From NCBI GenBank assembly GCA_963976885.1, contig CAXBNM010000001.1, positions 1 through 58,339 of the forward strand: a stretch of 58,339 nt of DNA. Direction: 5' to 3'. Of this stretch, positions 1-28,797 are shown in pieces (position 1 is the first letter of the stretch; each line of letters begins with the position of its first letter). The translations under genes and the position numbers were made by a program. The DNA is from an uncultured Burkholderiaceae bacterium (GTDB lineage Bacteria > Pseudomonadota > Gammaproteobacteria > Burkholderiales > Burkholderiaceae_E). Below the pieces are notes generated by a model. That model saw only the letters and a list, made by a program, of their open reading frames with translations. It did not search any database and was not told the DNA's origin.

Positions 1-502
1 CCGACGGTTCGGTTGAGTGATTTAGGTCGTTTGCTCCGGGTGTGCTGGAAAGATCTGGTTGAGGTCCGCTGGGTAACTGCAGAACGAACACTAGGGTCTC
101 AGTTAACAGTTGACAATGACTGCAAGATGGCTTGGGTCAAACGGGCTAACCAACTAGCCCAGTTACTCTTCGGTATCACTCCGTCACGGACTGTTTCGTC
201 CATTGGGGCAACGATAGGCGCTAATTGCCACATGTAGAAATACCCAATTGCCGGTAGTGAGGGTATTCTTTGCCATATTATGAAATTTTGGTACTGGCTG
301 GATTGGTGCCCTCGGTTTTGCAAATTTACATTTGTTTGCAATTGTTGACTCCTTCCGGTGGCCGTTGCAGCGTGATTGGCGCGGATTTTCGGTAACTGGG
401 GGCTGTCATGCCGGGAACGCGGGATGGGCAGCTCTGACCCATTGGCCGACACTGCGGGGATACCAAAAACAGGCGACTGCGCCTGATAAAGAGAGAAACT
501 CC

Positions 503-3500: not shown

Positions 3501-3694
3501 CCACCAACGATTCGGAAGACGTCTACGGATTCCGATTGTGCTGGCGGATCCGGACCGAACAAGAGGTCACGGCCAACATCCGTTTTGCCTGCACCAAACA
3601 CGACAATGATGGTCAGTACATTGGCGTGTCCATGACCGACCGGGTATTGCGCCGTGATGGTCGGCTGGATCTGGTTGACTTCCTGCACTTCTGA
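503..3694 (+). CDS. Large hypothetical lipoprotein (about 1063 aa) with a Gly/Asp low-complexity linker
   Basis: Long ORF 332..3694. An internal ATG at 503 is preceded by gagaga. The N-terminus MPTSLPIDRYGLLGAAALSLALAAC carries a lipobox (LAAC), followed by poly-Gly and a GGDGGD tract. No catalytic motif recognised. Overlapping antisense ORFs are Arg/Pro-rich shadows. Confidence 0.7.
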   Translation: MPTSLPIDRYGLLGAAALSLALAACGGGGGGGSSVAGGGGVTPGQGSGCTVEVKSGFSGAGPIDANGLEGEGEGGDGGDGGGGGDGGDGGGDGGDGGGIGAGGSLGQFRDTVVEVRDPTNGTVLGTGITDSVKGMVTLTPCDRNGALEVAFIGGNGATYFDEARKAFVPFPAGRELRVRVSKATQDFIGITPYTEAATSLSQEGESAGSVSLKTISQDIDESNQKIASILADQLPGVYRSSTADGRFEITGLPVVLNEQNVDQPGTLTDNNRGRYGAANAGLAVLAGTFLADDPTPALTVAGQLGRDLTDGKLDMVDANGCSMVSGSAANGSCADDAGDIAYTYETLWRAKTVATSVASQQAGDQSLAAKNAFVAVYRMAAKRSYESCAFPRGAGICDPLLRVTTAAQTVRLDSRGRLTLSRTMTAPFGDQLRFITATVEDLEVAGEYVEVKVGSRGEVIALSRDRSAFMYIDPLQVYLVTGEEPMTGDGLNLVNNVLDTTIRTVQSRRIAVIAPGVTNARVASFTPSPAARRFLDEPIGQGPAFLYLLPNGALRGVRPGAASGSFEARWGAPQQVALPAPARLTTVVYDKFALPAHEAAYGPAPSAAVALPYGGPRRLYGLNRSGKVMAWLEGASAQGRVLDIPGRVVQLVAEARAGAFALNSEGKVYWVNADQAFATDAGLDGRTQTAFARRFALNAVQTISLPEKICWLARTEAVACETGNVYRWTESLVEFAQTPTEFNACGVGSAGAITAATVDVTEVGTGISAPVKVNLATDIGPVWRLNSADEFGYERRGAFREVCSVDGLRYLGVNGKETDQAGAEGRRSIADTKITFNGEEVSFITGRQLTTALESANQAFTSNGGPATLASTGPVGFEASLDMRAQAGQQVISHRTVVTEPERLAVANVINAERPELSIFGQYQRADGSAALDLTSVLDETNNRQITLTGELRSWSDGDNIPLNVVGLGEWQASDPQAGCGTACTDERGQNQLWQVLILPTNDSEDVYGFRLCWRIRTEQEVTANIRFACTKHDNDGQYIGVSMTDRVLRRDGRLDLVDFLHF
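709..797 (+). repeat. In-frame GGC/GAC/GGT simple-sequence tract encoding (G/D)n, including a near-perfect 21-nt tandem duplication (752-772 and 773-793)
   Basis: The direct read ggtgatggtggcgacggcggc occurs twice in tandem with one mismatch at the last base, embedded in ggcggcgac repeats. Confidence 0.85.
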
Positions 3695-3713: not shown

Positions 3714-3756
3714 GTGCAACACGGGCACCGATCGGGTGCCCGTGTTGCACGTGTTT
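3714..3756 (+). terminator. Putative intrinsic terminator downstream of the lipoprotein gene
   Basis: Perfect 16-bp inverted repeat gtgcaacacgggcacc (3714-3729) / ggtgcccgtgttgcac (3735-3750) with a 5-nt loop, followed by gtgttt. It lies 20 nt after the stop at 3694. The T-tract is short. Confidence 0.6.
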
Positions 3757-3809
3757 GCGGCGCGGCTGATACGGGTTGTGTTTCAATGGAGTCCTTGCAG
3801 GAGGAAGCC

Positions 3810-4235
3810 ATGAAAATCAACCGTCTTAACGATCAGATCAGCGTCAGCCCCCAGATTGCCGCGGCCGATGTTGCCGAAGTCGCTCGCGCTGGTTTCAAAA
3901 CCATCATTTGCAATCGACCCGACAACGAAGCGCCCGATCAGCCGAGCATTGAGCAGATTCGTGCGGCAACCGAGCAGGCCGGACTTACGTTTGTTGAAAT
4001 TGCCTTCACCGGCGGTCGTCAGACGGCTGCCGACGTGCAAGCCTTCGCGCAGGCGCTCGAGGAGCAGGCCGCCCCGGTGCTCGCCTATTGCCGCACGGGC
4101 ACCCGGTCGGCAACCATCTGGGCCATGGCGCAGGCGGCTAAAAGCTCGCCCGATGAGATCATCGCGGCTGCGGCGGGTGCCGGCTACGACCTGGCCCCGA
4201 TGCGGCCGGTGCTGGCAGCATTGGGCAAGAGCTGA
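3810..4235 (+). CDS. TIGR01244/DUF442-family protein (PTP-loop-like, putative sulfurtransferase)
   Basis: ATG at 3810 is preceded by gcaggagga. The product MKINRLNDQISVSPQI...FKTIICNRPDNE...VLAYCRTGTRS matches my recollection of the DUF442 / Blh N-terminal domain family, with a Cys-Arg P-loop. Confidence 0.7.
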   Translation: MKINRLNDQISVSPQIAAADVAEVARAGFKTIICNRPDNEAPDQPSIEQIRAATEQAGLTFVEIAFTGGRQTAADVQAFAQALEEQAAPVLAYCRTGTRSATIWAMAQAAKSSPDEIIAAAAGAGYDLAPMRPVLAALGKS

Positions 4236-4286: not shown

Positions 4287-7200
4287 TCAGGTTGTGGTGA
4301 GCCGGGCGATGGCGAAGTCGGGAATCCCGATGGGGGATATCGTGACCGGTGTCTGCCGGCCTTCGGTGAGCCGGCTGACTTCCTCCGAAATGAAGAAGTC
4401 CAGGCCCTTGTAGGTAATGCGGCCGGTGCGGGTCAGATCTGCCCGCCCGCTCAGGCCTTCAATGAGTGCTTTGGTAAAGGCGCCATTTCCCCAGGCGTCA
4501 TTTTCTTCGGACAATTGCCGGCCCGAACTGGACGCAAAGACGATGACGCCGTTTTCGGCTGCCGCCAGATTGTTGGCCAGCCGGGCCAGTTCACGACTGG
4601 CGGTCTGGAAGTTGCCCAACGCGTTGCCGGCATAACAGGTATCGACAAAGAACAAGGCCTTGCCGCGCATGCTGCCCAGCGTGTTGCGGATTGACGCTTC
4701 GGGCACGCCGGTGGCGGCCAGTTGCAGATGGTTGCCCTCGTAGGGCATGAAGTAGTACTGGCCATCTGGGGCATTGATGCCGTGACCGGCCATGAACAAC
4801 ATGCCGACATCGTCGGGGCCGACGCTCTGACTGAGCCAATCGAGTGAGGCCAGTACGTTGGCGCGTGTGGCTTGTTCGTTGGTGACCGAGCGGCTCTGCA
4901 CATCGGAGTAATAGCGGCCCTTTTGCGCAATTACTGCCGCGGTGAAGTCGCGCGAGTCTTTGGCGGCCAGGCCAAGCTGGTACTCGGGTTGGCGATATTC
5001 ACTGATGCCGATGGACAGCACGAACAAGCGGGGGCCGGCAGCGGCGCTTGGCGATGGCGGCAGCGTGGGTACGGTTGGCGCCGGCGCATAGGCGCGCGCG
5101 CTGGAGGGGCTGACCGGGCCGCCTTGTGGCGCGCTGGGAGCCGGCGCACTGATGACCGGCATCGATTGCAGGGCGGCGGTGCTGACGGTGTTGGGGCGGG
5201 CGGCGAGCTGAAAGCTCAGCGGCTCGGACACGCCGTATTGATCGCGACCGATCAGTTGAATCAGCGAGCCGGGCGGGGGCGTGGCCACGCTGGCCATGGC
5301 CTGCGCGGTGCCGTCGAAGCGCTGCGGCAGTTGCACGGCCGCGCGTTCGGCCGGACGGCCATTGATGCGCACCTCGATGCTCGCTTCGCCCTCGGCGCGA
5401 ATCGTGAACGGTATCTGCAGGTTGTTGCCGGCCGCTTCCAGCGTGGTCAGGCCGACCGCATTGAGCACGGGCGGAAAGCGAATGGCTTCGATGCTGAGGG
5501 GGCGGGGCGGGCGCAGCGGCGTGACGACGGCGGCCGGTGGTGGTGGCACCGGCGGGATGCTGGCCGGTGGCTTGCTGACCGAGGGCCTGGCCACTGTGCG
5601 TTGCTTGATCTGGGTGCCGAGCAAGGTGTCGATTGCGTCAGGGTCGCTGAATTGATCGCGAAACCGGTTGAGCGAGAAGAAATCGGCCACCGGGGCATCG
5701 GCGCGGTTGACGCTCCAGCCGACATTGCGATCGGCCCCCGCGCTGGCATCGAACTGACCGGTCGGGGTCCAGATCACCCACTGGCCATTGCGCTGCGGCA
5801 TCAGCGCCATCATGGCTTTGCCGTCGCCGGCCTGCCACCAGCGAATGGTGCCATCGGACATGGCGGTGACGATGATCCGGTCGTCGGCGGTCAGGTTGAC
5901 CGCGCGGGCTTCGGCGGCCAGTGGCACGCGCCAGCGTATCGCGCCGTTGTCGGCGATGCGGTACAGCGCCTTGCTGGTGCCAAAGACGGCCTCGTCGCTG
6001 GTGTTGAATGAAGCCAGCGAGCGGCCAACCTCATCGCTGTTGATCTTGATGCTGGCGCCATTGATTTCGGGCCGTGCGGTGTTTTCCCACACGGGCTTGC
6101 TGAAAAATCCGCTCTTGATGGTGGCTGGGCGCAGCGTCTCGGGCAAAGGGCCCAGCGTGAGCAGGCGTTTTTCAAAGTCGAACCAGGCGGGGGTCTGGTC
6201 GTGGTCGAAGTTGAAGCCGATCCGGCCCGAGGTGGCGTCGATTTTCAGATTGCCGGCACCGCGCAAATCGGCCAGCTTGGCGCCGGTGGCGCGCACGCCA
6301 CCGTGGCCGGTGTCCAGCGTGCCCCAGGAGCCGTCATAGCTTGCATAGACGAGGCGGGTGCCATCGATAGGAGCCAGGTCATTGATGGTGTTGGCGGCCA
6401 GGAGTTGTTCGCGCAGCAATTGGCCGGTGCGGGCGTCGTACTCGTAGGCCTGAAACTCGCCGCTGCCTTTGTAGGCCGAGCCAGCGGCAATGATGCGCTG
6501 CCCGTCCGGCGAATAGGCCACGCTCATCAGATTGCCTTCCTTGCGCTCGGGCATCTCGAGGCGCAGTGCTGAGCGGCCGGATTGCAGGTCGAACACTTCG
6601 GGGTCATCGGTATTGCGGCGTGCATCGAAGTAGCCGACAACAAGCCGGTCGGCGGCGGGCGAGAAGGCCACGGCAATGGGCCGGGCACCGCTGGTGCGCA
6701 AGGTGGTGTCGGCGCGCAGACTGCCCAGTTCGATGCGCAAGAGATGAATCTTGCCGTCCATGGAGCTGGCCGCAACGCGACCGTTGGCCGCCACATCCAG
6801 CCCATAGGCGGGGGCCGCAAACTTTTGCTGATAGACCAACTGGCCGTGTGAATCGAAGGCGCGCAGCGCGTTGTCGCCGGCATAGGTGGCCAGCAACAGG
6901 CGGCCGTCGGGCGCGTAGGCGAGATTCTTGATGTCGCCGCCGCGGGCATCGATGGTTTGAATCAGCTGGCCGGTGACGACGGAGAACAGCAGTATTTTGT
7001 GACCGCTTGAACCCTGACCCGTGGTGCCGGCCACCGCCACCAGATTGCTGGTGGGGTGAATGGCGGCGCCATACATACGACCGATTTCGCCGGCGCCAAT
7101 GGCCGGCCGCAGAATCTGTTTCAACTCGCCGGTGGCCAGGTCCCAGATGCGCGCGGTTTTATCGTCAGAGGCGGTCAGCACGATGCCTTTGCGCACCGAT

Positions 7201-7355
7201 ACCGCAATGCGACGTACCGGGCCTGCGTGAGCGCCCAACTCGATCTGAATCTGCGGCGTGCTGGCGGCGGTTTGTGCGTAGCCCGGCGTACCAGTGCCTG
7301 CGGCGATGATGCCGAACAAGACCAGCTGGCTGAGACGACGGATGAATCGGATCAT
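4287..7355 (-). CDS. Secreted WD40/beta-propeller repeat protein with a C-terminal caspase-fold (peptidase C14) domain
   Basis: ORF 4287..7397; the preferred ATG at 7355 gives MIRFIRRLSQLVLFGIIAAGTGTPGYAQ, a signal peptide. WD-like blades are present (e.g. LTASDDKTARIWDLATGE) along with a Pro-rich linker. The C-terminus carries the caspase dyad contexts LFMAGHG (His) and FFVDTCYAG (Cys). Confidence 0.85.
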   Translation of the reverse strand: MIRFIRRLSQLVLFGIIAAGTGTPGYAQTAASTPQIQIELGAHAGPVRRIAVSVRKGIVLTASDDKTARIWDLATGELKQILRPAIGAGEIGRMYGAAIHPTSNLVAVAGTTGQGSSGHKILLFSVVTGQLIQTIDARGGDIKNLAYAPDGRLLLATYAGDNALRAFDSHGQLVYQQKFAAPAYGLDVAANGRVAASSMDGKIHLLRIELGSLRADTTLRTSGARPIAVAFSPAADRLVVGYFDARRNTDDPEVFDLQSGRSALRLEMPERKEGNLMSVAYSPDGQRIIAAGSAYKGSGEFQAYEYDARTGQLLREQLLAANTINDLAPIDGTRLVYASYDGSWGTLDTGHGGVRATGAKLADLRGAGNLKIDATSGRIGFNFDHDQTPAWFDFEKRLLTLGPLPETLRPATIKSGFFSKPVWENTARPEINGASIKINSDEVGRSLASFNTSDEAVFGTSKALYRIADNGAIRWRVPLAAEARAVNLTADDRIIVTAMSDGTIRWWQAGDGKAMMALMPQRNGQWVIWTPTGQFDASAGADRNVGWSVNRADAPVADFFSLNRFRDQFSDPDAIDTLLGTQIKQRTVARPSVSKPPASIPPVPPPPAAVVTPLRPPRPLSIEAIRFPPVLNAVGLTTLEAAGNNLQIPFTIRAEGEASIEVRINGRPAERAAVQLPQRFDGTAQAMASVATPPPGSLIQLIGRDQYGVSEPLSFQLAARPNTVSTAALQSMPVISAPAPSAPQGGPVSPSSARAYAPAPTVPTLPPSPSAAAGPRLFVLSIGISEYRQPEYQLGLAAKDSRDFTAAVIAQKGRYYSDVQSRSVTNEQATRANVLASLDWLSQSVGPDDVGMLFMAGHGINAPDGQYYFMPYEGNHLQLAATGVPEASIRNTLGSMRGKALFFVDTCYAGNALGNFQTASRELARLANNLAAAENGVIVFASSSGRQLSEENDAWGNGAFTKALIEGLSGRADLTRTGRITYKGLDFFISEEVSRLTEGRQTPVTISPIGIPDFAIARLTTT

Positions 7356-7459
7356 GAGACGAGCTTTCACCGGTAGGGCAATCAGTTGGCAGGGCATTGA
7401 AACAATACCGCAATACCGTGAACTGAGTCGGCCGGCGAGCCCGTTCGGTTCAGATTGGC

Positions 7460-9265
7460 TCAGCCTTCGCCCACCACTTTGACCTCAAGGCCAAGGTGCA
7501 GATACTGCTGGCGCAGCAGATTCAGGAAATGATCGGCCGGGATGGGCTGGCTGCACAGAAAGCCCTGGTACACGTCGCACTTGGCCGTACGCAGAAACTC
7601 CAACTGCTCCGGTTCTTCGACGCCTTCGGCCGTGACTTCAAAGCCCAGACTGCGCGACATTGCCAGCACGGCCAGGACGATTGCACAGCTGTCGGTATCT
7701 TCCGGAATACCGGAAACGAAGGACTTGTCGATCTTCAATTCGTCCAGACGCATGCGCTTGAGGCTGCTCAGCGACGAATAGCCGGTGCCGAAATCATCGA
7801 TCGAGGTCCGCACGCCGAGCGTTTTCAGTCCTTCGATGGTCTGCGTGTTTTCCTCCGTATCGTCCATCATCATCGACTCGGTCACTTCGATGGTCAGCAT
7901 GCTCGGATGCAGGCCGGTCCGGTGCACGGTTTCCTGAACATCCAGCAGGAGACGGCCATCGGCAAAGTGCGGGGCGGAGATGTTGACCGCCACCGTGCAG
8001 TCCGTAATGCCTGCTTCGCGCCAGCGAACCGCTTCACGGCAGGCTTGTTCCAGAACCCATGTGCCGATGTCGGAGATCAGGCCGAGTTCTTCGGCCAGCG
8101 GAATGAAATCGACGGGCGAGACTCGGCCGTGTACTGGATGATTCCAGCGAATCAGGGCTTCGGCACCGCAGATAAGATCGCTTTCGATGTCTACCTTGGG
8201 TTGATAGTACAACTCAAACTGGCCCGAATTGAGCGCCTTGCGAATATCGCGCTCCATCTCGAGGCGCCGCAGGGCTTGTTCGTTCAGAACCGGCGAGAAG
8301 AATCCGTACTGATGCATCCCTTGCCGACGGGCGCCAGCGAGGGCGCCATGGGCGGCCTGCAACAAACCATCGGCACTGCTGGCGTCCATAGGCGCGGCAG
8401 CGATGCCGACCGCGGAACTGAGATGAAACTCAAGTCCCTCGTGCGGGATGGACTGAGCCAGCGCCCGATTGATGCGTCGGGCAATATCGGCGCCGTGATC
8501 GGTGCTGTCTGTGCCTTGCAAAATTACCGCAAACTCGTCGCCGCCAATGCGGGACAAGGTCAGGCGGAGCGCTTCATTAGTGCGCGGGTCGCTGGCTTTC
8601 AAACAAGCCTGAATGCGTCTGGCGGCAATCTGTACGACATGGTCGCCAACTCGCCGGCCGACAGTTTCATTGATCTTCTTGATGCCATTGATCTCGATTT
8701 GCAGCAAGGTGCAAGGCGAGTCCGGGCCCTTGGCGCGGCGAATGGCGGAGTCAAGCTGATTGTTGAACATCCGTCGGTTGGGCAGATTGGTCAAGCCGTC
8801 AAAGTAGGTAAGCCGGTCCTGGTGCGCCTTGAAGGCCAGTGTGTTGCGCAGCCGGAGGATCAGTTCGCTCGGGTCAACCGGCTTGGCCAGAAAGTCGGTA
8901 GCGCCCATTTCCAGAACCTTGAGCTTGGTCTGAGCGTCGCTGGCCGAAGTCATCACGATGACAGGCAGCATCCGGGTATCGGGAGCGGCCTTGACCGTGC
9001 GCAAAATTTCAAAACCGTCAACCCCAGGCATCATCAAGTCCAGCAGCAATACGTCTGGTCGTTTGGCGTGTACGGTGGCTACTGCCTGGCGCGGATCGTT
9101 CAGCGCGATGAAGTCGAGGTAGCCCGACTCTTCCAGGAACGCCCGTACCAGTTCGGTCAGGATGGGCTCGTCATCGACCATCATTACACGGGCGCTGGTG
9201 GCCAATGAAACTTCAATGGGGTCAATGCCTGCAAACTCGGTCATGGATACATCGGGTTGATTCAT
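7460..9265 (-). CDS. Response regulator with REC-GGDEF-EAL architecture (c-di-GMP turnover)
   Basis: REC domain (MMVDDEPIL...DVLLLDLMMPGVDG). GGDEF motif intact (RIGGDEFAVIL). EAL motifs intact (EALIRW, DDFGTGYSSL, EGVE, YQGF). Its ATG overlaps the upstream stop as ATGA (9262-9265). Confidence 0.92.
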   Translation of the reverse strand: MNQPDVSMTEFAGIDPIEVSLATSARVMMVDDEPILTELVRAFLEESGYLDFIALNDPRQAVATVHAKRPDVLLLDLMMPGVDGFEILRTVKAAPDTRMLPVIVMTSASDAQTKLKVLEMGATDFLAKPVDPSELILRLRNTLAFKAHQDRLTYFDGLTNLPNRRMFNNQLDSAIRRAKGPDSPCTLLQIEINGIKKINETVGRRVGDHVVQIAARRIQACLKASDPRTNEALRLTLSRIGGDEFAVILQGTDSTDHGADIARRINRALAQSIPHEGLEFHLSSAVGIAAAPMDASSADGLLQAAHGALAGARRQGMHQYGFFSPVLNEQALRRLEMERDIRKALNSGQFELYYQPKVDIESDLICGAEALIRWNHPVHGRVSPVDFIPLAEELGLISDIGTWVLEQACREAVRWREAGITDCTVAVNISAPHFADGRLLLDVQETVHRTGLHPSMLTIEVTESMMMDDTEENTQTIEGLKTLGVRTSIDDFGTGYSSLSSLKRMRLDELKIDKSFVSGIPEDTDSCAIVLAVLAMSRSLGFEVTAEGVEEPEQLEFLRTAKCDVYQGFLCSQPIPADHFLNLLRQQYLHLGLEVKVVGEG

Positions 9266-11850
9266 CGAACTGCCTCAGCAGCATTGGCTTTGCCAGTGGG
9301 CGGGCCATCGGCTGGTGGGGGTGCCTGAATTCTGATGGCCAGCAAGACTATTTCTGCCATTGCAACCTGGGCGCCCGCCAAGTCGCCTGCCTTTGCGTAC
9401 TCTTCCAGAGTTCGGGCCGGTTCGGTGAACGAATCAAAGCCCACCGAGCCGGCTGAACCTTTGAGCCAGTGCGCTGATCCGGCCAGATCGTCCATTCGTT
9501 CTTCCAGGATCTCTTCTTGCATCTGGTCGATTCGTAACGGCAGGTTGTTGACGAAGCTGCGGATGATGTTGTGCAGTCGTGGTTGTGTATGCAATCGTGA
9601 CAGCAAGGGCTCAGGGGCAGCTTCAGGAGCGGCTACTGCGGCCGCTGTGGTCACTGCAGGCTTGGCGGCGGCCTCGATCGACGCGCTCTGGGCCGGCGGA
9701 TTGGCCGGCGCTGGCTGATGACTGGTTGCGGCTTTGGTGCCGCCGATTTCATGCGCGAGTCGCTCGAGCAGCAGATCGATGTCGATCGGTTTGGTCAGAT
9801 AGCTGTCGCAGCCAACTTCCTTGATCTCTTGCTCGAAGCCGGCCAATGCATGGGCGGTGAAAGCGATGATGGTGGTGGTAAAGCCTTCCTTGCGAAGCGT
9901 GCGTGTGGCCTCGTAGCCATCCATGACCGGCATCTGCATATCCATCAATACGACATCGAACGATTCGGCTCGTACCTTCTCGACGGCCTCCAGGCCGTTG
10001 CTGGCTTCCACGACATCAATGCCGGCGTCGGTCAGAACCACATTGACCAGTTGGCGGTTCTCGGGCGAATCGTCAACCACCAGCACACGACCGGAGTCGA
10101 ACTGCCAGGTTTCGTTCGATTGCTCGTCCGGGGCCGATGTCTGCATGGCCTCGGCCGCATCGATGAGTGTCAGCAACGCGTCGCTTTGCTCGGCCGCGGC
10201 GAGGGGCAGGGTAATCCTGAACTCGCTACCGTGCCCCATCTCGCTGGTCACGGTGATGTCACCCCCCATTGCGCGGGCAAACTTGCGACTGATGGTCAAA
10301 CCCAGACCGGTTCCGCCGAAGCGACGAGTGGTTGAGCTTTCGGCCTGGGTAAAGGGTTCAAAAATGCTCGCCAGCTTGTCCTGCCCGATCCCAATGCCTG
10401 AATCGCGCACGCAGATTTCCAGAACGCCACCGTCGCTGTTGTCCCGGTAGGCCTCGGTAATGGTGACCTGGCCCTGCTCGGTAAACTTGATCGCATTGCC
10501 GGTGAGATTGGTCAGAATCTGCCGCAGGCGGGCCGGGTCGGTTTTGATGGCGGCCGGTACCGGTGTCAACACCTCGAAGCTCAGGCCAACCGCTTTCTCA
10601 TCGGCGCGAACCCGCAGTATTTCGATCACATCGTGGATGATCTGATGAGGCGGATGGTCGATTTGCTCAACCTTGAACTCGCCGGCCTCTACTTTGGACA
10701 AATCCAGAATGTCGTTGATCAGTTCCAGCAGATGTTTGCCGTTGCGGTGAATGGTCTCAAGGTATCGGTCTGCTTCACCCGCGTTCTGTGTCTTGCCGCG
10801 CCTGATCAGTTCGGTAAAGCCCAAAACCGCATTCATCGGGGTGCGGATTTCATGGCTCATATTGGCCAGAAATTCAGTCTTGGCGCGGTTGGCCTGCTCG
10901 GCGTGTGCGGTTGCGGCCAGTAGTGCAACTTCCTTCTCTTCCAGTTCGGTAACGTCGTCGAGACTGATCATCGCGCCGTTGACGGTTTTATGGTCGCCCA
11001 TGATGGCCGCGCTATTGGCCAGGAAGGAACGAGAGATGCCGTCGGCGCGGCGAATCGATACCGGCAGATTGCGGGTGGAGATACCATCACGCATGGTCTG
11101 CGCCCAGGGCAAGGCATCGGCGGCTATTGCTTCGCCGTCACGGTTGTGCCATTCGAATCGGGCCGCCGGTGTGCCGATCATATCGTCGGCCTGTTCCCCG
11201 ACCAGTTCACAGAAGGAGCTGTTGGTCAGCACGATCTGGCCTTGTGCATCGATCAGCATCAGGCTTTCGGCCAGCGTATCCAGCGCGTTTCTGACCCGGG
11301 CCGGGACGGTCCGGGATGGGTCGAGATGGCGCAACATGCGGCCGAGATAGAGAAAGAACGCAACGAAGCAGATGGCGCACAGCGCGACCACCGACAGCAC
11401 TCGGTCGTCCAGCAGAAAGCCGATCACGCCGGGCCGGGTTACCGGCTGAAAGAGCAATTCCATTTGGCCCCAGCGGTCGCCGCCGCTGAGCAGCGGCACG
11501 ACAATCTGGGTTTCGGTGGATTCAGCGTCTGCCGGTGGCGACCAGCTCTGGGCATGATCGCCCGTCTGAACCAGCAAGGAGCTGTCGGCCTGGCGAACCG
11601 CCAGACTGGTCAGTGCCGGATCGCGCTCAACGGCAAAGTCGAGCATCTGTTGAACCGAGTTGGTGTCATCATGAATCAGTGCGGACATGGCGCCGGCAGC
11701 GACCAGTTCGGCGGTAGAGATCCGGTTCAGACGCTCGAGCTTGGCCCGATCGGGCAACATGCCGAGAAAGTAGACGATCAGCATCGCGCTCGAGACCAGC
11801 GAGACCAGTCCCAAAGTGAGCAAGACGCGTGCAGTTTGCTTGCGCTTCAT
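9262..11850 (-). CDS. Hybrid sensor histidine kinase (2 TM sensor, PAS, HisKA, HATPase, REC, Hpt)
   Basis: Two TM segments flank a region of about 130 aa. PAS-like LMLIDAQGQIVLTN. H-box FLANMSHEIRTPMN. G-boxes DSGIGI and GGTGLGL. REC VLVVDDSPENR...VLMDMQMPVMDG. Hpt HWLKGSAGSVGF. ATGA overlap with the giant gene stop (11847-11850). Confidence 0.93.
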   Translation of the reverse strand: MKRKQTARVLLTLGLVSLVSSAMLIVYFLGMLPDRAKLERLNRISTAELVAAGAMSALIHDDTNSVQQMLDFAVERDPALTSLAVRQADSSLLVQTGDHAQSWSPPADAESTETQIVVPLLSGGDRWGQMELLFQPVTRPGVIGFLLDDRVLSVVALCAICFVAFFLYLGRMLRHLDPSRTVPARVRNALDTLAESLMLIDAQGQIVLTNSSFCELVGEQADDMIGTPAARFEWHNRDGEAIAADALPWAQTMRDGISTRNLPVSIRRADGISRSFLANSAAIMGDHKTVNGAMISLDDVTELEEKEVALLAATAHAEQANRAKTEFLANMSHEIRTPMNAVLGFTELIRRGKTQNAGEADRYLETIHRNGKHLLELINDILDLSKVEAGEFKVEQIDHPPHQIIHDVIEILRVRADEKAVGLSFEVLTPVPAAIKTDPARLRQILTNLTGNAIKFTEQGQVTITEAYRDNSDGGVLEICVRDSGIGIGQDKLASIFEPFTQAESSTTRRFGGTGLGLTISRKFARAMGGDITVTSEMGHGSEFRITLPLAAAEQSDALLTLIDAAEAMQTSAPDEQSNETWQFDSGRVLVVDDSPENRQLVNVVLTDAGIDVVEASNGLEAVEKVRAESFDVVLMDMQMPVMDGYEATRTLRKEGFTTTIIAFTAHALAGFEQEIKEVGCDSYLTKPIDIDLLLERLAHEIGGTKAATSHQPAPANPPAQSASIEAAAKPAVTTAAAVAAPEAAPEPLLSRLHTQPRLHNIIRSFVNNLPLRIDQMQEEILEERMDDLAGSAHWLKGSAGSVGFDSFTEPARTLEEYAKAGDLAGAQVAMAEIVLLAIRIQAPPPADGPPTGKANAAEAVR

Positions 11851-14800
11851 AGTGTGGCCCTGGGGGAATCGGACGCAAGGTCCGGCGCATCAGCAGGCGA
11901 GTCGTCCGCCGCTTGCTGGCGTGCCTGTTCAAGCATGGATTCAATGGACTCATCGTCGCCGGTGCCGCCTTCGGCAACCGGCATATTGCTCAGAACCGGC
12001 AACGGATCAATTGATCGCCATGCGGGCATCGTCGCCAGCACGCTGCTGAGCAGGGCGCCGCTGCGAATCAGCCAGAGTACATAGCCGATGGAAAGGGTTG
12101 AGCTGAGGGCAAACGACGAGGTAACGATCTGGCGATCAAATGACGTTTGCGCTTGGATCTCATCTTTGATGGATTGAAGCTGGCGACTGAAGTATTCGCT
12201 GGAAAAATCTACCTGCTCGATGCCGTAGCTGCGTTCGGTCTGGAGCTGATCGACGGGCAGATCAAAGCGTCGTTCACTCTCCTGATTATCGGACAGACCT
12301 TGTACGGCAGGCGGTATCTCGCGCCGGCCGGCCAGCAGCGCCGATTGGGCGTTGCGCTCGATCGGGCTCTGGCCGTCCGATGCCGAGTCTTCGACGAGCG
12401 CGGCCTGCGCCCGGCCACTGGCATTGTCGCTATCGCCGCCTGGTGTGTCGGCTCGTCCGTCGTTGTTGATCTCGTCGTCGGCATCGTCATCGCCGTCGGC
12501 ATCGTCGTTGTCCGTTGCTGAGTCATCGGCTACCTCATTGTCCGGTGCTTCGGCGGGTTCATCGGGAACAATGCTCGGTTGCAGGCTTTCGATGCCTACT
12601 TTGATAACGCCGCTGCGGCCGCCCTCGCTGTCTTCGATCTGGATTTCGAAGCTGTCATTGCTGCCAGTGGCTTTATCAGCCAGGTAGCTGACCTTGCCCT
12701 CGCTCAGTTGCTGCTGCGTGAACCGGTCACCCGTGTTGAGCTTGACGCCATCAAGAAGCAGGCTTCCCTGGCTTGGTGTGTTCAACACAACGAAGTGCAA
12801 CTCACTGGCATCGTCCTCGATGTCGGTTGCCGACAGCACGGCAGTGCTGAGAACCCGTTCGGTGCCGGGCTCGGCTGACGTCCACATGGATCCTGCCGGG
12901 CTTGGGCTGTCATTGACCGCAATGATTTCGATTGTGGTGCTGATCGTTACCGAGCGGGTCGGATCGTTCGGATCGATGAAGCTGGCTTGCGCGGCCCAGT
13001 TGCCGTTAACGTCCTGGTCGGGGCGGTAGTCGAGAGTCAGCAGGGCAGCGGCAATGTCGCTGACCGACCCACTCAAGCGCATGCTTTGATCGGCGACGCC
13101 GTCACCTTGAGTGAAGGTCAAGCCAGTGGTCTGTCTCAACGATAACGACCCGGACGACACCGCCAGGTTCAGCTCCAGCACGCTGGCGTTCAACGGGTCC
13201 GCGAAGTTCAGGCTTTGACCCCATGGGCTGGTCTGATCTTCCATGATCTGCCGGTTGCCCGACCATTGCGCGGTCAGGCCGTCGGGGTTGACTGCTACCC
13301 CGACGCGCAAAGACTGGGTGTCGGCTCGGACTCCGTCCGACGCGCTGACCAGGACGTGATAGATATTGTCGCCATCAGCATCCATTGGATTGTCCGCCGT
13401 TGGCAGGAAGCGAAAACTCAGAGCGCCGGAGGTGTTGTTGATGTTGAACGCCGCGGCATCTGTGCCTCCGGCGATCGTGTAGAACAGCGTCGGAGAGTCC
13501 GGGTCGTTTGCCCGTACCGTGGTCACAGCTGTGGTGCGGTCGGGCAGCGTGATACTGGCTGAGTCACCGCCGTTGTTGCTCGTGATCGTCGGCGAATAGT
13601 CGACTGTATTGATGACATTGAAAGTCAGGAGCGCGCCTGAGGTACTGAACAGGCCGGCGCTGTCGGCTACCTGGAAGCGAAAGCTTGCATAAGGTGAACC
13701 CACGCCATGCTCAACCGGGGTGAATACCAGCTCGCCGGCTGTCAGGCTGGCCTGGGAGATCTCCTGGCCGACAGCGACGCCTGTGCCGTTCAGGGACAGT
13801 GTGCCAAGGGTTGGCAGGGTATCAATACGTACGGCGCTGAGTGTGTCGTATGCATCCTGGTCGGCAAAGGCGAAATCTGCAACAGTCAACGCGGCAGAAG
13901 TTGATTCGTCGATGGTGCGCGTGTTGCCGTTGGAGGAGGGGGCCTCATTGACGTCGCTGACAGCAATGGTGAAACTGCGCTGGATTGTCGATCCATCGGA
14001 GGAACGCGCCAGTACATTGATTTGATGGGGCAGATCCGTCTCGAAGTCAAAGACAGCCGCATCGCTCACCGTGACCACACCGGTGTTTGCATCAATCGCG
14101 AACAGCGCGTCAGGGTTCGAATTGAGCTCGTAAGTAATGATGCGGCCGTTGTCTGTGTCAGTGGTCTGCACGGTAATGCCGACCGGGGTTCCTGCAACAG
14201 CATTCTCCGCGACGGCATCGGGCGTGGCGTCGCTGTCGATGATGGGATTCAGCCCTTCATTGACATTCGTCACCGCGACGTTGAAGGTTCGAGTGATGGT
14301 TGACCCGTCATTGGAAGTGGCACGCACGGTGATCTGATGCGATTCACTTGTTTCAAAATCGATGTTCGCGCCATTGCTGACAGTTACCACGCCGGTGTTG
14401 GCATCAATGCCAAACAGCGGACTGCTGTCGGGGTCGAGCGAGTAGGTGATGGTTCTACCCTGGTCGGTGTCGGTCGCACGAGCCGTAATGCCCGTGGCGG
14501 TGCCTGCGACTGAGTTCTCGGCGATGGAGTTGGCTGCGCCGTCGAGGTCCGCGATCGCCGAGAGGCCTTCATTGACATCGATGACATCGATCGAAAAGAT
14601 TCGAGTCGCCGTGGAGCCGTCGTCCGAACTTGCCCGAACGGTAATGAAGCGTTGTGCTGATGACTCGTAGTTGATGGTGGCGCCGCTATCAACGCTGACG
14701 ACGCCGGTATTGGCGTCAATGACGAACGCACTGTCGGAGCCCGGCTCGAGCGAGTATGTGATGGTGCGACCGCTATCAGTATCGGTCGCGTGAGCAGTAA

Positions 14801-19622: not shown

Positions 19623-19626
19623 GTTT

Positions 19627-20583
19627 TCAGCTCCGTGCTGCCGGCGCTGGCCCGGTATCAAAACTGACCCGGCATCGGGCGCCTGCCGGTACCGTGAGCG
19701 CACTGTTGTCGACCAGCATCTGCGCCCGGAAGGTCGAGCTTGCCGGATCGATGAAGGCGTCGACCTGATCGACGATTGCGGTCAATTCCATCGGCTCGGC
19801 GGTCTCGGTATTGACCGTGCCGATCATGCCGGCGGCGATGCGCCCGTAGTAACGCGCGGGGGCCACCACTTCGACGCGCAGCATATCAAGGCGGATCACC
19901 CGTGCAATGGTGCGGCCATCGGCACGCTCGCCGGCGCTGACCATCTGCTCGGCCACGACGCCGTCGATCGGACTGCGCACGTAACGCTGATCCAGTTGCT
20001 GGGCGGCAACCTGATGCTCGCGGTCGGCAATGCGGTGGCGTTCACGGGCCTGCTCGATGCGATAGGTGGCGACGTCGAGCTCGCCCTCGGCCAGTTCCAG
20101 TTCGAGTTGAGCGCCGTAACTCAGTTCATTGAGTGACTTCATGCGCGCGACCTTGCGTTGGGCCATCTGATGGGTAGCCCGGGCCGCGGCGATTTCGGCA
20201 CGGGCGGCTGCGCGTGCCTCGGCTGCGAGCAGCAAGGCCTGTTCAACCGAGTTGTCGAGCACGGCCAGGATCTGACCGCGTCTGACCCGATCGCCACGCT
20301 TGACGCGCACCTCGGCAAGAATGCCGGGGGCACCGGCGCCGATATCGGCAGCGGTATGGGGCGTAATCAGACAGCCGAACCCATCCTCGGAATAGTTGCC
20401 CGATTTGCCGTGGGCCGGATTGCCGAGCTGTTTGCGGCTGGAGGCATTGGCCGGACGATTCGGCATTTCCATCGCACGCGGTGTGTCCGGGCGTGTCTGC
20501 GCGCTCGATAATCCTGTGCTCACAGCAAGCAGGCCGGAGGTGAGGGCGACGGCGATCAGGCCCGTGTGTCTGATACGGTTCAT
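19627..20583 (-). CDS. Periplasmic membrane-fusion / adaptor protein (HlyD/RND-MFP family)
   Basis: Signal peptide MNRIRHTGLIAVALTSGLLAVSTGLSSAQ. Lipoyl-like hairpin GILAEVRVKRGDRVRRGQILAVLD, a coiled-coil stretch, then VRSPIDGVVAE. It starts 13 nt after the SecA-like stop. Confidence 0.88.
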   Translation of the reverse strand: MNRIRHTGLIAVALTSGLLAVSTGLSSAQTRPDTPRAMEMPNRPANASSRKQLGNPAHGKSGNYSEDGFGCLITPHTAADIGAGAPGILAEVRVKRGDRVRRGQILAVLDNSVEQALLLAAEARAAARAEIAAARATHQMAQRKVARMKSLNELSYGAQLELELAEGELDVATYRIEQARERHRIADREHQVAAQQLDQRYVRSPIDGVVAEQMVSAGERADGRTIARVIRLDMLRVEVVAPARYYGRIAAGMIGTVNTETAEPMELTAIVDQVDAFIDPASSTFRAQMLVDNSALTVPAGARCRVSFDTGPAPAARS

Positions 20584-20596
20584 TTCTCGACTTCCA

Positions 20597-26105: not shown

Positions 26106-26455
26106 CCGGGCCGCGGTCAGGCCCGATGTTTCGTCCGGGTTACTGGTCGTGCCGCCGTTGCGCACAGGCGCGGCTCCGCCGGCGCGGGGCGCAGGCGATC
26201 GCAGCGGTCGGGAACGCAGAGCAACAGACAAGATTTTGGCTCAAATGACACTTGGAATGCCTAGTTTGGGCGGTGCGGCGCGGCTGCGGCGAGACTGGCC
26301 GGTGAGTGTCCGATAGGTGGTCACCGGACAGGTACCAGCGGCTCAGAATGCGATGTGAATGCAACCGGTATCCTTCGGGGATTCCGATTTTGCTCGGGCC
26401 GGCACAGGCCGCGGGCTTTCTACCCCTTTGATTGCACGTTAGCAAGGAGACAGCA

Positions 26456-27223: not shown

Positions 27224-27240
27224 GCAAGTGCGCTGACGGG

Positions 27241-27262
27241 CCGGCGCTAGCGGTAGCGCCGG
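27241..27262. terminator. GC-rich hairpin between convergent genes (possible bidirectional terminator, no T-tract)
   Basis: ccggcgcta (27241-27249) / tagcgccgg (27254-27262) with a 4-nt loop. It overlaps the stop of the minus-strand small ORF. Confidence 0.35.
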
Positions 27263-28705: not shown

Positions 28706-28797
28706 GAGACTTCCTTGTGGCTAAAGGTGAGAATGGATCGGGCAATCCGGATGGGCCGCTTGCTATTGGCGGCCTGGCGGGCATGGCCGGTGCGACT

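Follow-up and report, generated by a model that had tools for sequence, protein, structure and literature searches.

A giant surface protein, a sensor kinase and a c-di-GMP enzyme as probable members of a widespread seven-gene cassette beside an orthocaspase gene

Gene content of the locus

The window analysed here is a stretch of 58,339 nucleotides from an uncultured Burkholderiaceae bacterium (contig CAXBNM010000001.1). It carries seven tightly packed genes (the cassette, 7460..26231, minus strand), next to which lie a caspase gene and its neighbours. The features are as follows:

24729..26231, minus strand: long periplasmic adaptor (HlyD/MFP family), first gene of the cassette; longest ORF 500 aa, start codon uncertain
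22540..24753, minus strand: triple fusion (M50) of PqqD-like, site-2-protease-like and MexA/AcrA-type adaptor parts, 737 aa
20597..22543, minus strand: SecA-like ATPase, 648 aa; its start overlaps the M50 stop by 4 nt
19627..20583, minus strand: short periplasmic adaptor (HlyD/MFP), 318 aa; signal or anchor segment at the N-terminus; directly upstream of the cargo gene
11847..19703, minus strand: giant surface protein (cargo), longest ORF 2618 aa
19563..19604, minus strand: cargo N-terminal motif IAEQVAQRILYSAD, a variant of [LIV]E.LEPR[ILV]L[FY]SAD preceded by basic residues
11850..12224, minus strand: cargo C-terminal membrane domain, placed by alignment
9262..11850, minus strand: hybrid sensor histidine kinase, 862 aa; TM1, periplasmic segment of ~120 aa, TM2, then PAS-HisKA-HATPase-REC-Hpt
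7460..9265, minus strand: REC-GGDEF-EAL response regulator, 601 aa; last gene of the conserved cassette
7356..7459, minus strand: spacer between cassette and caspase gene, 104 nt
4287..7355, minus strand: WD40-caspase (orthocaspase), 1022 aa, outside the cassette; Sec signal peptide, WD40 beta-propeller(s), Pro-rich linkers and C14 domain
332..3694, plus strand: large lipoprotein, the conserved partner of the caspase gene and convergent with it, outside the cassette; probable start Met58, lipobox LALAAC
3714..4235, plus strand: BLH-phosphatase-like gene after the lipoprotein gene (BLH_phosphatase, E = 1e-31)

The giant gene and the kinase, REC-GGDEF-EAL and protease genes thus all lie on the minus strand. 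The stop of the giant gene overlaps the start of the kinase gene by four nucleotides (ATGA, 11847-11850, CTATGAAG) and the kinase stop overlaps the start of the REC-GGDEF-EAL gene in the same way (ATGA, 9262-9265, CGATGAAT), both as described in an earlier, sequence-only reading of this stretch. Its assignment of the kinase as a HisKA-HATPase-REC-Hpt hybrid was confirmed by Pfam domains, with a PAS domain in addition, and the signal-peptide WD40 and caspase gene does lie 104 nt further on with no strong terminator in the gap (7356-7459).

Upstream of the cargo gene, the long adaptor consists of a poorly conserved cytoplasmic N-terminal region, one TM segment and the adaptor, with matches to Pfam HlyD_3 and HlyD_D23. 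Its N-terminal part gave a weak GAF match (E = 0.007, below cut-off). The M50 fusion is built, in order, from a cytoplasmic PqqD-like domain of the RiPP-recognition type, an intramembrane zinc metalloprotease and a periplasmic adaptor, with at least five TM segments; in NCBIfam it matches daptide_HExxH (E = 1e-44, below cut-off) and PqqD. We found 778 homologues, and the HExxH and NPLxRxDGYY motifs are conserved in 19 homologues. In an AlphaFold2 model (pLDDT 89.4) the C-terminal ~280 aa resemble MexA/AcrA/MacA (Foldseek, E = 4e-11). The SecA-like ATPase, which is shorter than SecA, has the motor domains and the preprotein cross-linking domain (Pfam SecA_DEAD, SecA_PP_bind and P-loop_SecA) together with the GEGKT, DEAD and GRGTD motifs, and its best NCBIfam match is SecA2 at 358 bits against a cut-off of 725. 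The short adaptor matches Pfam and, above cut-off, NCBIfam RND_mfp (110.8 bits against 94.9). No outer-membrane factor was found among the scanned ORFs of at least 200 aa, and the cassette encodes no recognised inner-membrane translocase. Nor could a c-di-GMP receptor be identified in it, the GAF signal being weak and the N-terminal region poorly conserved; to our knowledge, GAF domains are not established c-di-GMP binders.

The giant protein contains DUF4347 and at least 10 cadherin repeats by Pfam. Its probable start is the TTG at 19622, which has GGAG 8 nt before it, lies 4 nt after the upstream stop and gives a protein of 2591 aa. From this end it comprises a LEPR-XLL-like motif, DUF4347, a beta-propeller-like region, the cadherin repeats, an acidic linker and the C-terminal membrane domain; neither a Sec signal peptide nor RTX repeats were found in it. 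The LEPR-XLL-like motif lies 50-100 aa ahead of DUF4347 in essentially all cargo orthologues, and in locus L090 stands at the extreme N-terminus. At the other end, the consensus of 79 sequences reads ...SIGYV(I/L)WL(L/I)R(G/S)G.LLSSVL..LPAWR.IDPLPVLS...(D/E)DDESLES..., and the cargo of the relative L005 shares 38% identity over the C-terminal 505 aa, with near-identity within the membrane-domain motif.

No Pfam family scored above cut-off for the N-terminal 180-aa sensor of the kinase. This domain is carried by 1249 cluster representatives, and 59 of 60 matches start within the first 40 residues. Twenty mid-length members were sampled, of which 11 are sensor-PAS-GGDEF proteins and 9 are kinases. 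The GGDEF, EAL, DDFGTG and EGVE motifs of the REC-GGDEF-EAL protein are all intact.

Distribution and conservation of the cassette

No published description of this seven-gene cassette was found. It ranges over Burkholderiales, Methylococcales, Oceanospirillales-type marine gammaproteobacteria, Granulosicoccus, Marinobacter and Nitrospirales, and its apparatus-plus-cargo core is also present in one Desulfobacteraceae MAG. The SecA-like gene occurs in betaproteobacterial and Desulfobacteraceae cassettes and is absent from gammaproteobacterial ones.

A search for the cargo C-terminal domain motif in a one-genome-per-species collection returned 264 confirmed matches. An orthologue of the sensor kinase starts less than 700 nt after this domain in 41 of 71 genome loci, and the N-terminal sensors of these downstream kinases share 31-57% identity with that of the window. 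The pairing spans beta- and gammaproteobacteria and beyond, often with the 4-nt overlap kept, and all seven metagenome loci containing the domain have the sensor family after it. Of 36 resolved cargo-kinase junctions, 17 are 4-nt overlaps and all others measure at most 66 nt; of 39 resolved kinase-phosphodiesterase (PDE) junctions, 10 are 4-nt overlaps and the others are usually shorter than 150 nt. Both the kinase and an EAL protein are present in 37 of 57 loci. All-against-all clustering of ORFs recovered the same set of recurrent genes (cargo in 60 loci, kinase in 48, PDE in 42, short adaptor, HlyD_s, in 20, M50 in 15, and SecA-like and long adaptor, HlyD_l, in 10 each), with no gene recurring beyond the PDE end.

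The upstream genes follow the same pattern. HlyD_s lies upstream in 13 of 24 kinase-positive loci and the M50 gene in 11 of 24, against none of the 13 kinase-negative loci in either case. Of the 71 loci bearing the cargo C-terminal domain, 28 have no kinase and are read as orphan cargo paralogues, although most of the genomes are fragmentary MAGs. In an independent sample of 80 metagenome loci, retrieved via DUF4347, an apparatus gene (short adaptor, SecA-like or M50) lies directly upstream of the DUF4347 gene in 40 of 55. The long adaptor is found upstream of M50 in orthologous loci, and three loci with homologues at 32-36% identity (L090, L091 and L092) keep the order long adaptor, PqqD-M50, SecA-like, adaptor and large downstream gene. 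That last gene encodes a DUF4347 protein in L090 and L092 and is without a Pfam match on record in L091; likewise, weak or faint GAF matches beside the adaptor domains are on record for the long-adaptor homologues of L090 and L092 only. The four upstream genes are co-conserved with DUF4347 giant proteins, and probably form an export or anchoring machine.

Cargo, kinase and c-di-GMP enzyme genes stand side by side in this order, with little space between them, in dozens of genomes that are only distantly related. Because it is conserved in this way, the arrangement of these three genes is far beyond chance, which does not hold for the protease gene. We put at roughly 0.7 the probability of the whole reading, in which the giant surface-protein, sensor kinase and c-di-GMP enzyme genes are members of a widespread seven-gene cassette with its own export machinery, the cassette works as a cargo-linked c-di-GMP relay and the caspase gene is an unrelated neighbour.

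One could argue instead that the kinase/PDE pair is a general biofilm regulator hitch-hiking with adhesin genes, as happens in islands acquired by horizontal transfer, and neither senses nor acts on the cargo. Two-component and c-di-GMP genes are indeed abundant and often near adhesin loci, and the cassette appears mobile, given its insertion here (see below) and the G+C content of the cargo region, which at 0.56-0.60 is lower than that of the flanks (~0.62-0.66). However, the family-specific sensor tracks the cargo C-terminal domain across classes with conserved 4-nt overlaps, and the pair accompanies the apparatus-linked cargo gene rather than orphan paralogues. Moreover, where the kinase is replaced (loci L111, with a 4-nt overlap with the cargo gene, and L152), a sensor-PAS-GGDEF fusion bearing the same sensor takes the same position. 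We consider hitch-hiking very unlikely.

The caspase gene and its neighbourhood

The longest form of the protease ORF is 4287..7397, and the signal-peptide start is Met15 (MIRFIRRLSQLVLFGIIAAGTGTPGYA/Q) at coordinate 7355, so that the gap to the cassette is 104 nt from Met15 or 62 nt from the upstream ATG. WD40/beta-propeller regions cover residues ~50-340 and 459-523 and Peptidase_C14 covers 793-1018, with the His/Cys dyad present (AGHG and DTCYAG). Given its Sec signal peptide, the protein probably resides in the periplasm or is secreted. The spacer 7356-7459 showed neither a terminator-like nor a promoter-like site; its folding energy is ordinary (z = -0.9), and it shares a ~25-nt block, CGACTCAGTTCACGGTATTG, with a relative of 74% identity.

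From this adjacency the sequence-only reading had proposed that the caspase stands in for LapG, with the phosphorelay acting through c-di-GMP on caspase cleavage or maturation of the adhesin. The protease gene does share the strand of the cassette and follows it at 104 nt, no terminator having been found between them, and its signal peptide and intact dyad would put an active enzyme in the right compartment; its adjacency is also kept in the closest relatives, L005/L009, and the caspase module lies near the cassette in L012 and L058. Nevertheless, of 32 cassette loci only 3, all from close Burkholderiaceae relatives of one subclade, have a caspase/WD40 homologue in the 10 kb downstream, and the co-conservation with the adhesin locus that the proposal would entail was thus not found. 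The junction takes three different structures: a gap of ~100 nt in the window and in L005/L009, one of about 600 nt in L012, and a 2.9-kb opposite-strand gene between the two in L058.

Moreover, caspase orthologues at 44-56% identity occur without an adhesin, kinase or EAL gene, most of them with a convergent large protein gene downstream. The cassette is absent from 5 of 6 distinct caspase contexts, and a convergent large protein gene lies just downstream of the caspase in 4 of the 5 cassette-free contexts and in the cassette-linked L005; the exception, L006, has a same-strand RCC1-type gene instead. Homologues of the window lipoprotein adjoin the caspase orthologues of L005/L009 (63-65% identity) and L058 (35%, full length). 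Beside the caspase of L007/L008 there is a partial match to a Pfam RCC1-type protein, and in L006 only a short match of 100 aa inside the caspase ORF; the convergent protein of L087 is also RCC1-type by Pfam, with no sequence match to the window lipoprotein ORF. The caspases are a large, Burkholderiaceae-centred, multi-copy family of ~1000-aa proteins (1639 homologues, with two copies in L089), and their neighbourhoods contain DUF4384 genes. Two publications (PMC7475262, PMC8283722) treat WD40 and DUF4384 alongside orthocaspases. Like bacterial orthocaspases, the window protease has a p20-type His/Cys dyad and WD40 repeats; it differs in its Sec signal peptide and its convergent large lipoprotein partner gene.

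Synteny points to how the two came together. In L007/L008 and L087 the backbone runs aminotransferase (AT), SLT, UbiD, S13 peptidase, EamA and caspase, and the window has AT, SLT, UbiD and S13 in the same order and orientation (identities of 73% for UbiD, 60% for AT and 47% for S13). This shows window positions 7460..~32400 to be an insertion next to a resident caspase gene, and the cassette therefore lies within the insert. The caspase gene came to adjoin the cassette when this segment of ~25 kb was inserted. There is also no c-di-GMP-sensing element joining the protease to the relay, and we regard the caspase as a most improbable LapG substitute. The caspase gene probably belongs to a different conserved module, paired with the large lipoprotein gene, and is an unrelated neighbour of the cassette. 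As it follows at ~100 nt without a terminator in the window and the closest relatives, co-transcription and some acquired functional link are possible, and there may be read-through into it in the window organism.

In the Lap system of Pseudomonas fluorescens/putida, the adhesin LapA is exported by type I secretion (LapBCE) and regulated through the c-di-GMP receptor LapD and the periplasmic cysteine protease LapG. The window is similar in having a giant repeat adhesin beside membrane-fusion-type export genes and GGDEF-EAL signalling, with a protease nearby, and the general idea of c-di-GMP wired to a giant adhesin holds. However, none of the Lap features tested was found, and membership of that system was rejected: there is no LapG-type (C93) protease, no LapD-type TM-HAMP degenerate GGDEF-EAL receptor (best LapD model score 124 bits against a cut-off of 1020) and no ABC transporter, and the cargo has a C-terminal membrane domain in place of RTX repeats and a C-terminal type I signal. 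The EAL domain of the window enzyme is instead catalytically intact by motifs and REC-controlled, and signalling would probably run outside-in, from an envelope sensor to c-di-GMP, whereas in Lap c-di-GMP acts on the periplasmic protease. Of the analogous circuit once suggested for this locus, the functional link between adhesin, phosphorelay and c-di-GMP enzyme is strongly supported, through deep co-conservation and the fusion of the sensor to GGDEF elsewhere; the protease arm is not supported.

Proposed working and relation to other systems

The cassette most likely ties how its own surface protein is made or exported, or what state it is in, to the c-di-GMP level of the cell, and is most likely a cargo-linked c-di-GMP relay rather than a Lap-type c-di-GMP-gated protease switch. 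Three modules can be envisaged. The first would be an envelope-spanning export or anchoring machine made from three membrane-fusion-type adaptors, one with a cytoplasmic GAF-like domain and one fused to a PqqD-type site-2-protease-like metalloprotease, with the SecA-like ATPase in addition in betaproteobacteria. The second would be the giant cadherin-repeat cargo, with its LEPR-XLL-like motif and DUF4347 at the start and its conserved, membrane-embedded C-terminal domain. The third would be the signalling pair, translationally coupled to the cargo gene, in which the kinase would sense a stimulus via its two-TM periplasmic sensor and its Hpt domain would pass phosphate to the REC domain of the downstream enzyme, leading to c-di-GMP hydrolysis by EAL.

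A different use of the same parts, Lap-like in its logic, would have the cassette's own M50 protease cut the cargo C-terminal membrane domain or remove the LEPR-XLL leader, releasing or maturing the adhesin. The kinase/PDE pair would gate this step from the cytoplasm through the nucleotide state that it sets, perhaps via the GAF-like domain of the long adaptor. The strictly conserved catalytic motifs are consistent with this, as is the joining of the protease to a PqqD-type peptide-recognition domain and an adaptor; moreover, the cargo N-terminal motif and the Gly/Ser-rich C-terminal membrane segment are both short and highly conserved, as would suit elements read by proteases or recognition domains. 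A cytoplasmic sensory-type domain on an adaptor also recalls PilZ-Alg44. Against this, the cargo has no defined cleavage site, GAF is only weakly assigned, and some cassettes, such as that of L090, lack the kinase/PDE pair, so the M50 protease does not depend on the relay. We therefore hold such gated cleavage to be rather unlikely.

The relay itself has close parallels in Pseudomonas aeruginosa, where the two-component systems RocS1/RocR (Roc/Sad) and PvrS/PvrR, the latter beside the cupD fimbrial cluster, control adhesins through REC-EAL phosphodiesterase outputs. Common to these and the window are a hybrid or unorthodox kinase and a REC-domain phosphodiesterase that lie beside or control an adhesin locus. 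The window enzyme matches PvrR in NCBIfam (E = 7e-67), but at 226 bits it is far below the cut-off of 580 and is therefore not a PvrR orthologue. It also has an extra GGDEF domain, mostly degenerate in the family; the sensor belongs to a distinct family, the pair is translationally coupled to the cargo gene itself, and the adhesin is a giant DUF4347/cadherin protein rather than chaperone-usher fimbriae.

The putative machine shares with tripartite efflux and type I secretion its three MexA/AcrA/HlyD-type adaptors, with alpha-hairpins as for TolC-like docking, and a substrate gene directly downstream of them. It differs in that the cassette has no ABC, RND or MFS transporter; the inner-membrane part is the metalloprotease-adaptor fusion, and the sole candidate motor is the SecA-like ATPase, which gammaproteobacterial cassettes lack. 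In domain content only, a second SecA-type ATPase encoded beside a very large surface protein resembles the accessory SecA2 pathways by which Gram-positive bacteria export large adhesins, and the PqqD-like domain fused to a HExxH membrane protease resembles RiPP leader-peptide proteases such as daptide HExxH. Here, however, the daptide score is 153 bits against a cut-off of 300, the SecA2 score likewise falls short, the host is Gram-negative with no SecY2 or glycosylation genes, and the presumed substrate is 2600 aa long rather than a short peptide.

Lastly, we considered the output of the relay. All 43 PDE orthologues keep the EAL, N, E-TE, DDFGTG, K, EGVE and Q residues, whilst only 9 of them have a canonical GGDEF motif; the REC phospho-acceptor region is also conserved. 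This argues for c-di-GMP hydrolysis (phosphodiesterase), not synthesis, as the conserved output of the cassette. As the GGDEF motif of the window copy is intact, synthesis of c-di-GMP by that copy is also possible. All outputs of the sensor family are c-di-GMP enzymes, reached either through the kinase and a REC-(GGDEF)-EAL protein or by direct GGDEF fusion, and in sister cassettes the same sensor is joined directly to a diguanylate cyclase (DGC). Since PDE-type and DGC-type outputs both exist, members of the family need not all respond with the same sign.

Gene order and the caspase neighbour

The giant, kinase, REC-GGDEF-EAL and protease genes all lie on the minus strand. The first three close a cassette of seven genes, running from window 26231 to 7460, in which neighbours overlap or are separated by no more than 13 nt. 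The features are as follows, in the direction of transcription of the cassette, with the cluster that precedes it and the genes that follow it:

26432..32479, acyl-CoA metabolism cluster: SDR, two enoyl-CoA hydratases, GST, acyl-CoA dehydrogenase
24729..26231 (-), long HlyD-type adaptor, its N-terminal region cytoplasmic; the GAF match here is below threshold
22540..24753 (-), 737-aa PqqD-like and site-2-protease (M50) protein with an HExxH/NPxxxxDG core
20597..22543 (-), SecA-like ATPase, motor motifs intact
19627..20583 (-), short HlyD-type adaptor; RND_mfp above cut-off
11847..19703 (-), giant ORF (the cargo): DUF4347, at least 10 cadherin repeats (Pfam)
9262..11850 (-), hybrid kinase: two TM helices flanking a periplasmic segment of ~120 aa, then PAS-HisKA-HATPase-REC-Hpt
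7460..9265 (-), REC-GGDEF-EAL protein (the PDE), its start overlapping the kinase stop as ATGA
4287..7355 (-), WD40-caspase protease
3714..4235 (+), BLH-phosphatase-like gene, lying between the caspase and lipoprotein genes
332..3694 (+), large ORF with a lipoprotein signal

The giant gene stop and the kinase start have an ATGA in common at 11847-11850, and the same four nucleotides join kinase and PDE. The protease follows after 104 nt if it starts with the Met at coordinate 7355, which opens a typical Sec signal peptide. It carries WD40/beta-propeller repeats, a Peptidase_C14 domain and the motifs AGHG and DTCYAG. No terminator- or promoter-like site was seen in the gap, whose predicted folding is unremarkable, and these scans gave nothing for or against co-transcription. 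From strand, overlaps, gap and domains, the gene layout described in the sequence-only reading (two stop-start overlaps, then a signal-peptide WD40-caspase gene 104 nt further on with no strong terminator between) is therefore accurate. When the gap was aligned with the closest relative, a block of ~25 nt, CGACTCAGTT[C/A]ACGGTATTG, was the sole common stretch in an otherwise diverged spacer (window 7356..7459, minus strand; positions 9900..10000 of the related locus L005); it could be a candidate promoter or operator of the caspase gene. Elsewhere in the window, ORFs of 206-608 aa without a Pfam match at E<=1e-5 lie at 36998..38824, 42054..42674, 47411..48262 and 56078..56839 (all minus).

The protease is an ordinary-looking orthocaspase (Peptidase_C14 E=2e-12; 47.5 bits, cut-off 21.4) with the His/Cys dyad in place, and its family of ~1000-aa 'caspase family proteins' (1639 matches) is found mostly in Burkholderiaceae. 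Among the window ORFs of at least 200 aa scanned, it is the only cysteine protease. It had been proposed to stand in for LapG. This is not supported, and the protease is not co-conserved with the adhesin locus: a caspase was found near only 3 of 32 cassettes, and five of six caspase neighbourhoods are cassette-free.

Neighbourhoods of caspase relatives in other genomes (locus handle; identity to the window caspase; content)
L005; 74%; giant gene, kinase, REC-GGDEF-EAL, caspase
L006; 56%; without adhesin, kinase or EAL gene
L007/L008; 50%; without adhesin, kinase or EAL gene
L087; 51%; without adhesin, kinase or EAL gene
L088; 46%; without adhesin, kinase or EAL gene
L089; 47%; without adhesin, kinase or EAL gene; two caspase copies

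The order in L087 and L007/L008 is aminotransferase (+), SLT (-), UbiD (+), S13 peptidase (-), EamA (-), caspase (+) and RCC1-like (-). When the window is flipped, its aminotransferase, SLT, UbiD and S13 genes have the same order and orientation, with identities of 73% (UbiD), 60% (aminotransferase) and 47% (S13). The distance from S13 to caspase is here about 25 kb (7460..~32400), filled by the cassette and the small acyl-CoA metabolism cluster, and G+C reaches its minimum (0.56-0.57) inside the cargo gene. This backbone synteny shows that the adhesin locus is an insertion next to a resident caspase gene. The large gene that follows the caspase is convergent in L007/L008 and L087 (RCC1-type by Pfam) and in L088 and L089 (no RCC1 matches); in L006 it is RCC1-type and on the same strand. 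A DUF4384/DUF2807/OmpA cluster is then present in L005, L007/L008 and L087. Full-length matches to the 332..3694 (+) ORF were confined to L005/L009 and L058; L007/L008 gave a partial match, and in L006 a short stretch within the caspase ORF matched. Two papers (PMC7475262, PMC8283722) treat WD40 and DUF4384 in connection with orthocaspases. The periplasmic WD40-orthocaspase and its large downstream gene look like a separate conserved envelope module. The caspase calls for caution about adjacency: the same strand, a 104-nt gap and the lack of a terminator suggested an operon partner, and comparative context makes it a neighbour only through insertion. We regard a Lap-like circuit with the caspase as its protease as highly improbable.

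A conserved unit of seven tightly coupled genes

With the 125-aa cargo C-terminus as query, a word-indexed protein search gave no more than 3 short fragments, and related loci were retrieved by pattern instead. The cargo of the 74% relative has 38% identity to that of the window over the C-terminal 505 aa and near-identity in one C-terminal hydrophobic motif, SIGYV(L/I)WL(I/L)R(S/G)G.LLSS...PAWR.(I/V)DPLP(V/I)LS, which is followed by an acidic DDDSLES tail. In a collection with one genome per species, 264 sites with this motif were confirmed. The 78 of these loci that were listed are from Burkholderiaceae, Rhodoferax, Sulfurirhabdus, Methylococcales, Neptunomonas, Neptuniibacter, Amphritea, Marinobacter, Halioglobus, Granulosicoccus, Psychromonas, Nitrospirales and an alphaproteobacterium.

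A kinase orthologue starts no more than 700 nt downstream of the motif in 41 of 71 loci, its N-terminal sensor included at 31-57% identity, and 59 of 60 matches align from within the first 40 residues. Kinase and EAL gene were both found in 37 of 57 loci. Upstream of the cargo, kinase-positive loci contain the short adaptor (13/24) and the M50 protein (11/24); in the remainder the length of the cargo gene puts them beyond the flank. In kinase-negative loci neither was seen (0/13). Since several genomes hold both kinds of locus, these 13 look like orphan cargo paralogues; the extra 'orphan' genes in such genomes have the C-terminal domain and are without apparatus or kinase. Unsupervised clustering of all ORFs yielded seven recurrent families, namely cargo, kinase, PDE, short adaptor, M50 protein, SecA-like ATPase and long adaptor. 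Nothing recurrent was obtained beyond the PDE, and a further conserved gene there was rejected.

The junctions are equally tight. Cargo and kinase genes overlap by 4 nt in 17 of 36 resolved loci and are never more than 66 nt apart, and kinase and PDE overlap by 4 nt in 10 loci. Locus counts, ORF clustering and junction spacing together reject a chance adjacency of kinase and PDE, and the idea that the pair is a hitch-hiking general regulator is very unlikely. Moreover, the arrangement recurs in metagenomes. A scan with a single DUF4347 sequence gave no matches; with a DUF4347-alignment seed, 585 sites were confirmed. An apparatus gene lies directly upstream on the same strand in 40 of the 55 loci having at least 2.5 kb of upstream sequence, and the sensor follows the cargo C-terminal motif in all seven loci in which the motif is visible and sequence extends beyond it.

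The sensor kinase and its c-di-GMP output

The kinase has every domain of a phosphorelay (Pfam HisKA 9e-23, HATPase_c 6e-30, Response_reg 1e-28, Hpt 1e-11), with SHEIRTP, VLMDMQMP and HWLKGSAG visible in its sequence. From gene overlap and co-conservation only, we infer that its Hpt passes phosphate to the REC domain of the PDE. The EAL phosphodiesterase set (the E of EAL, N, E..TE, DDFGTG, K, EGVE and Q) is complete in the window protein and in 43/43 orthologues, and the REC phospho-acceptor region is likewise present in the window protein and conserved among the 43. A canonical GGDEF occurs in only nine of them, the others having SGDEF, GGNEF, DGDRF and similar. Mean identity to the window PDE is 57% for REC, 47% for EAL and 32% for GGDEF. 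This pattern points to REC-controlled c-di-GMP hydrolysis as the conserved output. The window copy keeps GGDEF and is without an RxxD I-site, and might additionally be a c-di-GMP synthesiser. A LapD-type receptor was rejected for this protein, which has no TM helix, begins with REC, has intact EAL motifs and scores 124 bits against the cut-off of 1020 for the NCBIfam LapD model. No PilZ domain was found as a c-di-GMP receptor in the cassette; the N-terminal region of the long adaptor, with its sub-threshold GAF match, is a hypothetical one.

In sister cassettes the gene in the kinase position encodes the same sensor and a PAS domain fused to a GGDEF cyclase (loci L111, 15007..17872, and L152, 8327..9835; proteins P0268, P0285, P0287 and others). 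In L111 this gene overlaps the cargo stop by 4 nt and is followed by a cNMP-binding-EAL gene. With the kinase so replaced, the c-di-GMP response seems to take a different sign from one cassette type to another. In a full HMMER search, the 181-aa sensor recovered 1249 cluster representatives, in which the domain is almost always N-terminal; twenty sampled proteins of middle length comprised 11 sensor-PAS-GGDEF proteins and nine kinases. In the loci and proteins examined, c-di-GMP enzymes are the only partners of the sensor, linked to it through a phosphorelay or fused to it directly.

Apparatus, cargo and relation to known systems

Both HlyD genes have the adaptor fold (HlyD_3 and HlyD_D23). 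The N-terminal region of the long adaptor aligns poorly among orthologues, and weak GAF matches occur in its distant homologues. The 737-aa protein has HELAH at residue 222 and NPLIRFDGYY at residue 318; among its homologues, many of which have Pfam Peptidase_M50 on record, HExxH is kept in 19/19 and DG in 18/19. Its AlphaFold2 model (pLDDT 89.4, pTM 0.78) shows the C-terminal ~280 residues as a predicted adaptor of the MexA/AcrA/MacA type (Foldseek E=4e-11), a third adaptor fold in the apparatus. The SecA-like protein (648 aa) has motor and PPXD domains; identity as a full SecA or SecA2 was rejected (NCBIfam 330 bits against 800 for SecA, 358 against 725 for SecA2), and its gene is absent from gammaproteobacterial cassettes. 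The gene order long adaptor, PqqD-M50, SecA-like, adaptor and large downstream gene is preserved around M50 homologues of 32-36% identity in one complete betaproteobacterial genome, one metagenome scaffold and one Desulfobacteraceae MAG; the last gene encodes a DUF4347 protein in two of the three. No ABC, RND or MFS transporter and no outer-membrane channel was found among the window ORFs of at least 200 aa scanned. The four genes are a candidate export or anchoring machine without a recognisable transporter, resembling tripartite pumps and type I systems in their adaptors only. The four-gene block (19627..26231, minus) is co-conserved with DUF4347 giant proteins far beyond the lineage of the window.

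The cargo is conserved at both ends. Cargo proteins have no Sec signal peptide; ahead of DUF4347 they have a basic stretch and an [LIV]E.LEPR.L.SAD-type motif. The longest ORF starts at GTG 19703, so that 77 nt of it lie within the upstream adaptor gene. A start at TTG 19622, with GGAG 8 nt upstream (window 19560..19622, minus), gives the N-terminus MSGRPPIAEQVAQRILYSAD, which matches orthologue starts; because cargo proteins have the basic stretch and LEPR motif in common before DUF4347, TTG 19622 is suggested as the start of the giant gene. The C-terminal membrane domain (11850..12224, minus) matched no Pfam or NCBIfam model.

Both giant adhesins and c-di-GMP have a central part in biofilm formation, and Lap is, to our knowledge, the one well-understood link between them. 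The locus does not belong to the Lap type: no LapG-type Peptidase C93/DUF920 match (Pfam) was found among plausible window ORFs of at least 200 aa, a LapD-type receptor is lacking, the cassette has no ABC transporter gene for type I secretion, and the giant protein has no HemolysinCabind (RTX) match and ends in the conserved membrane domain. Roc and Pvr of P. aeruginosa are pairs of a kinase and a REC-EAL protein that govern adhesins, and the window relay, though not orthologous, would be closer to these in logic than to Lap. As a regulatory arrangement it varies a familiar theme, the adhesin locus that has c-di-GMP signalling of its own, in a form for which the literature searches found no earlier description.

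We propose that the giant protein owes its export and anchoring to the adaptors, the protease fusion and the SecA-like ATPase, and that the sensor kinase, produced in step with its cargo, would monitor the cargo, its anchor or the envelope and, by Hpt-to-REC transfer, switch on c-di-GMP hydrolysis. The kinase, EAL, M50 and SecA-like proteins all have their catalytic motifs intact. To the overall picture we give a probability of about 0.7; we are less confident of what exactly is sensed. The intact M50 core would also suit processing of the cargo in a Lap-like release step, an alternative that we consider unlikely. A bolder version is speculative and probably goes too far: an undescribed envelope machine, made of the PqqD-protease-adaptor fusion, two further adaptors and, in betaproteobacteria, the SecA-like ATPase, and free of any ABC, RND or MFS transporter, exports and anchors LEPR-XLL/DUF4347 giant proteins, and the conserved C-terminal membrane domain of the cargo is read, perhaps mechanically, by a dedicated membrane sensor with c-di-GMP enzymes as its only known outputs. 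If true, the giant surface protein would double as adhesin and extracellular arm of a device that signals surface contact to c-di-GMP.

With its surface protein wired outside-in to a second messenger, the cassette makes a case that is concrete and open to experimental test. Its link, unlike that of Lap, has a giant gene translationally coupled to a private sensor with c-di-GMP enzymes downstream, and recurs in hundreds of genomes. Full-text searches of the literature on DUF4347, on LEPR-XLL and on the apparatus domains in combination yielded no account of the seven-gene cassette and no paper explaining export of LEPR-XLL/DUF4347 giant proteins. The apparatus, with three adaptors, an intramembrane protease in the transporter's place and a SecA-like ATPase, may be something new and may explain that export. 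Lastly, in the distant cassette L090, which is without the kinase/PDE pair, there is a divergent gene for a 963-aa GGDEF-EAL protein (4940..7831, minus) immediately upstream of the long adaptor gene; this single case hints that the c-di-GMP link may extend to other cassette types.
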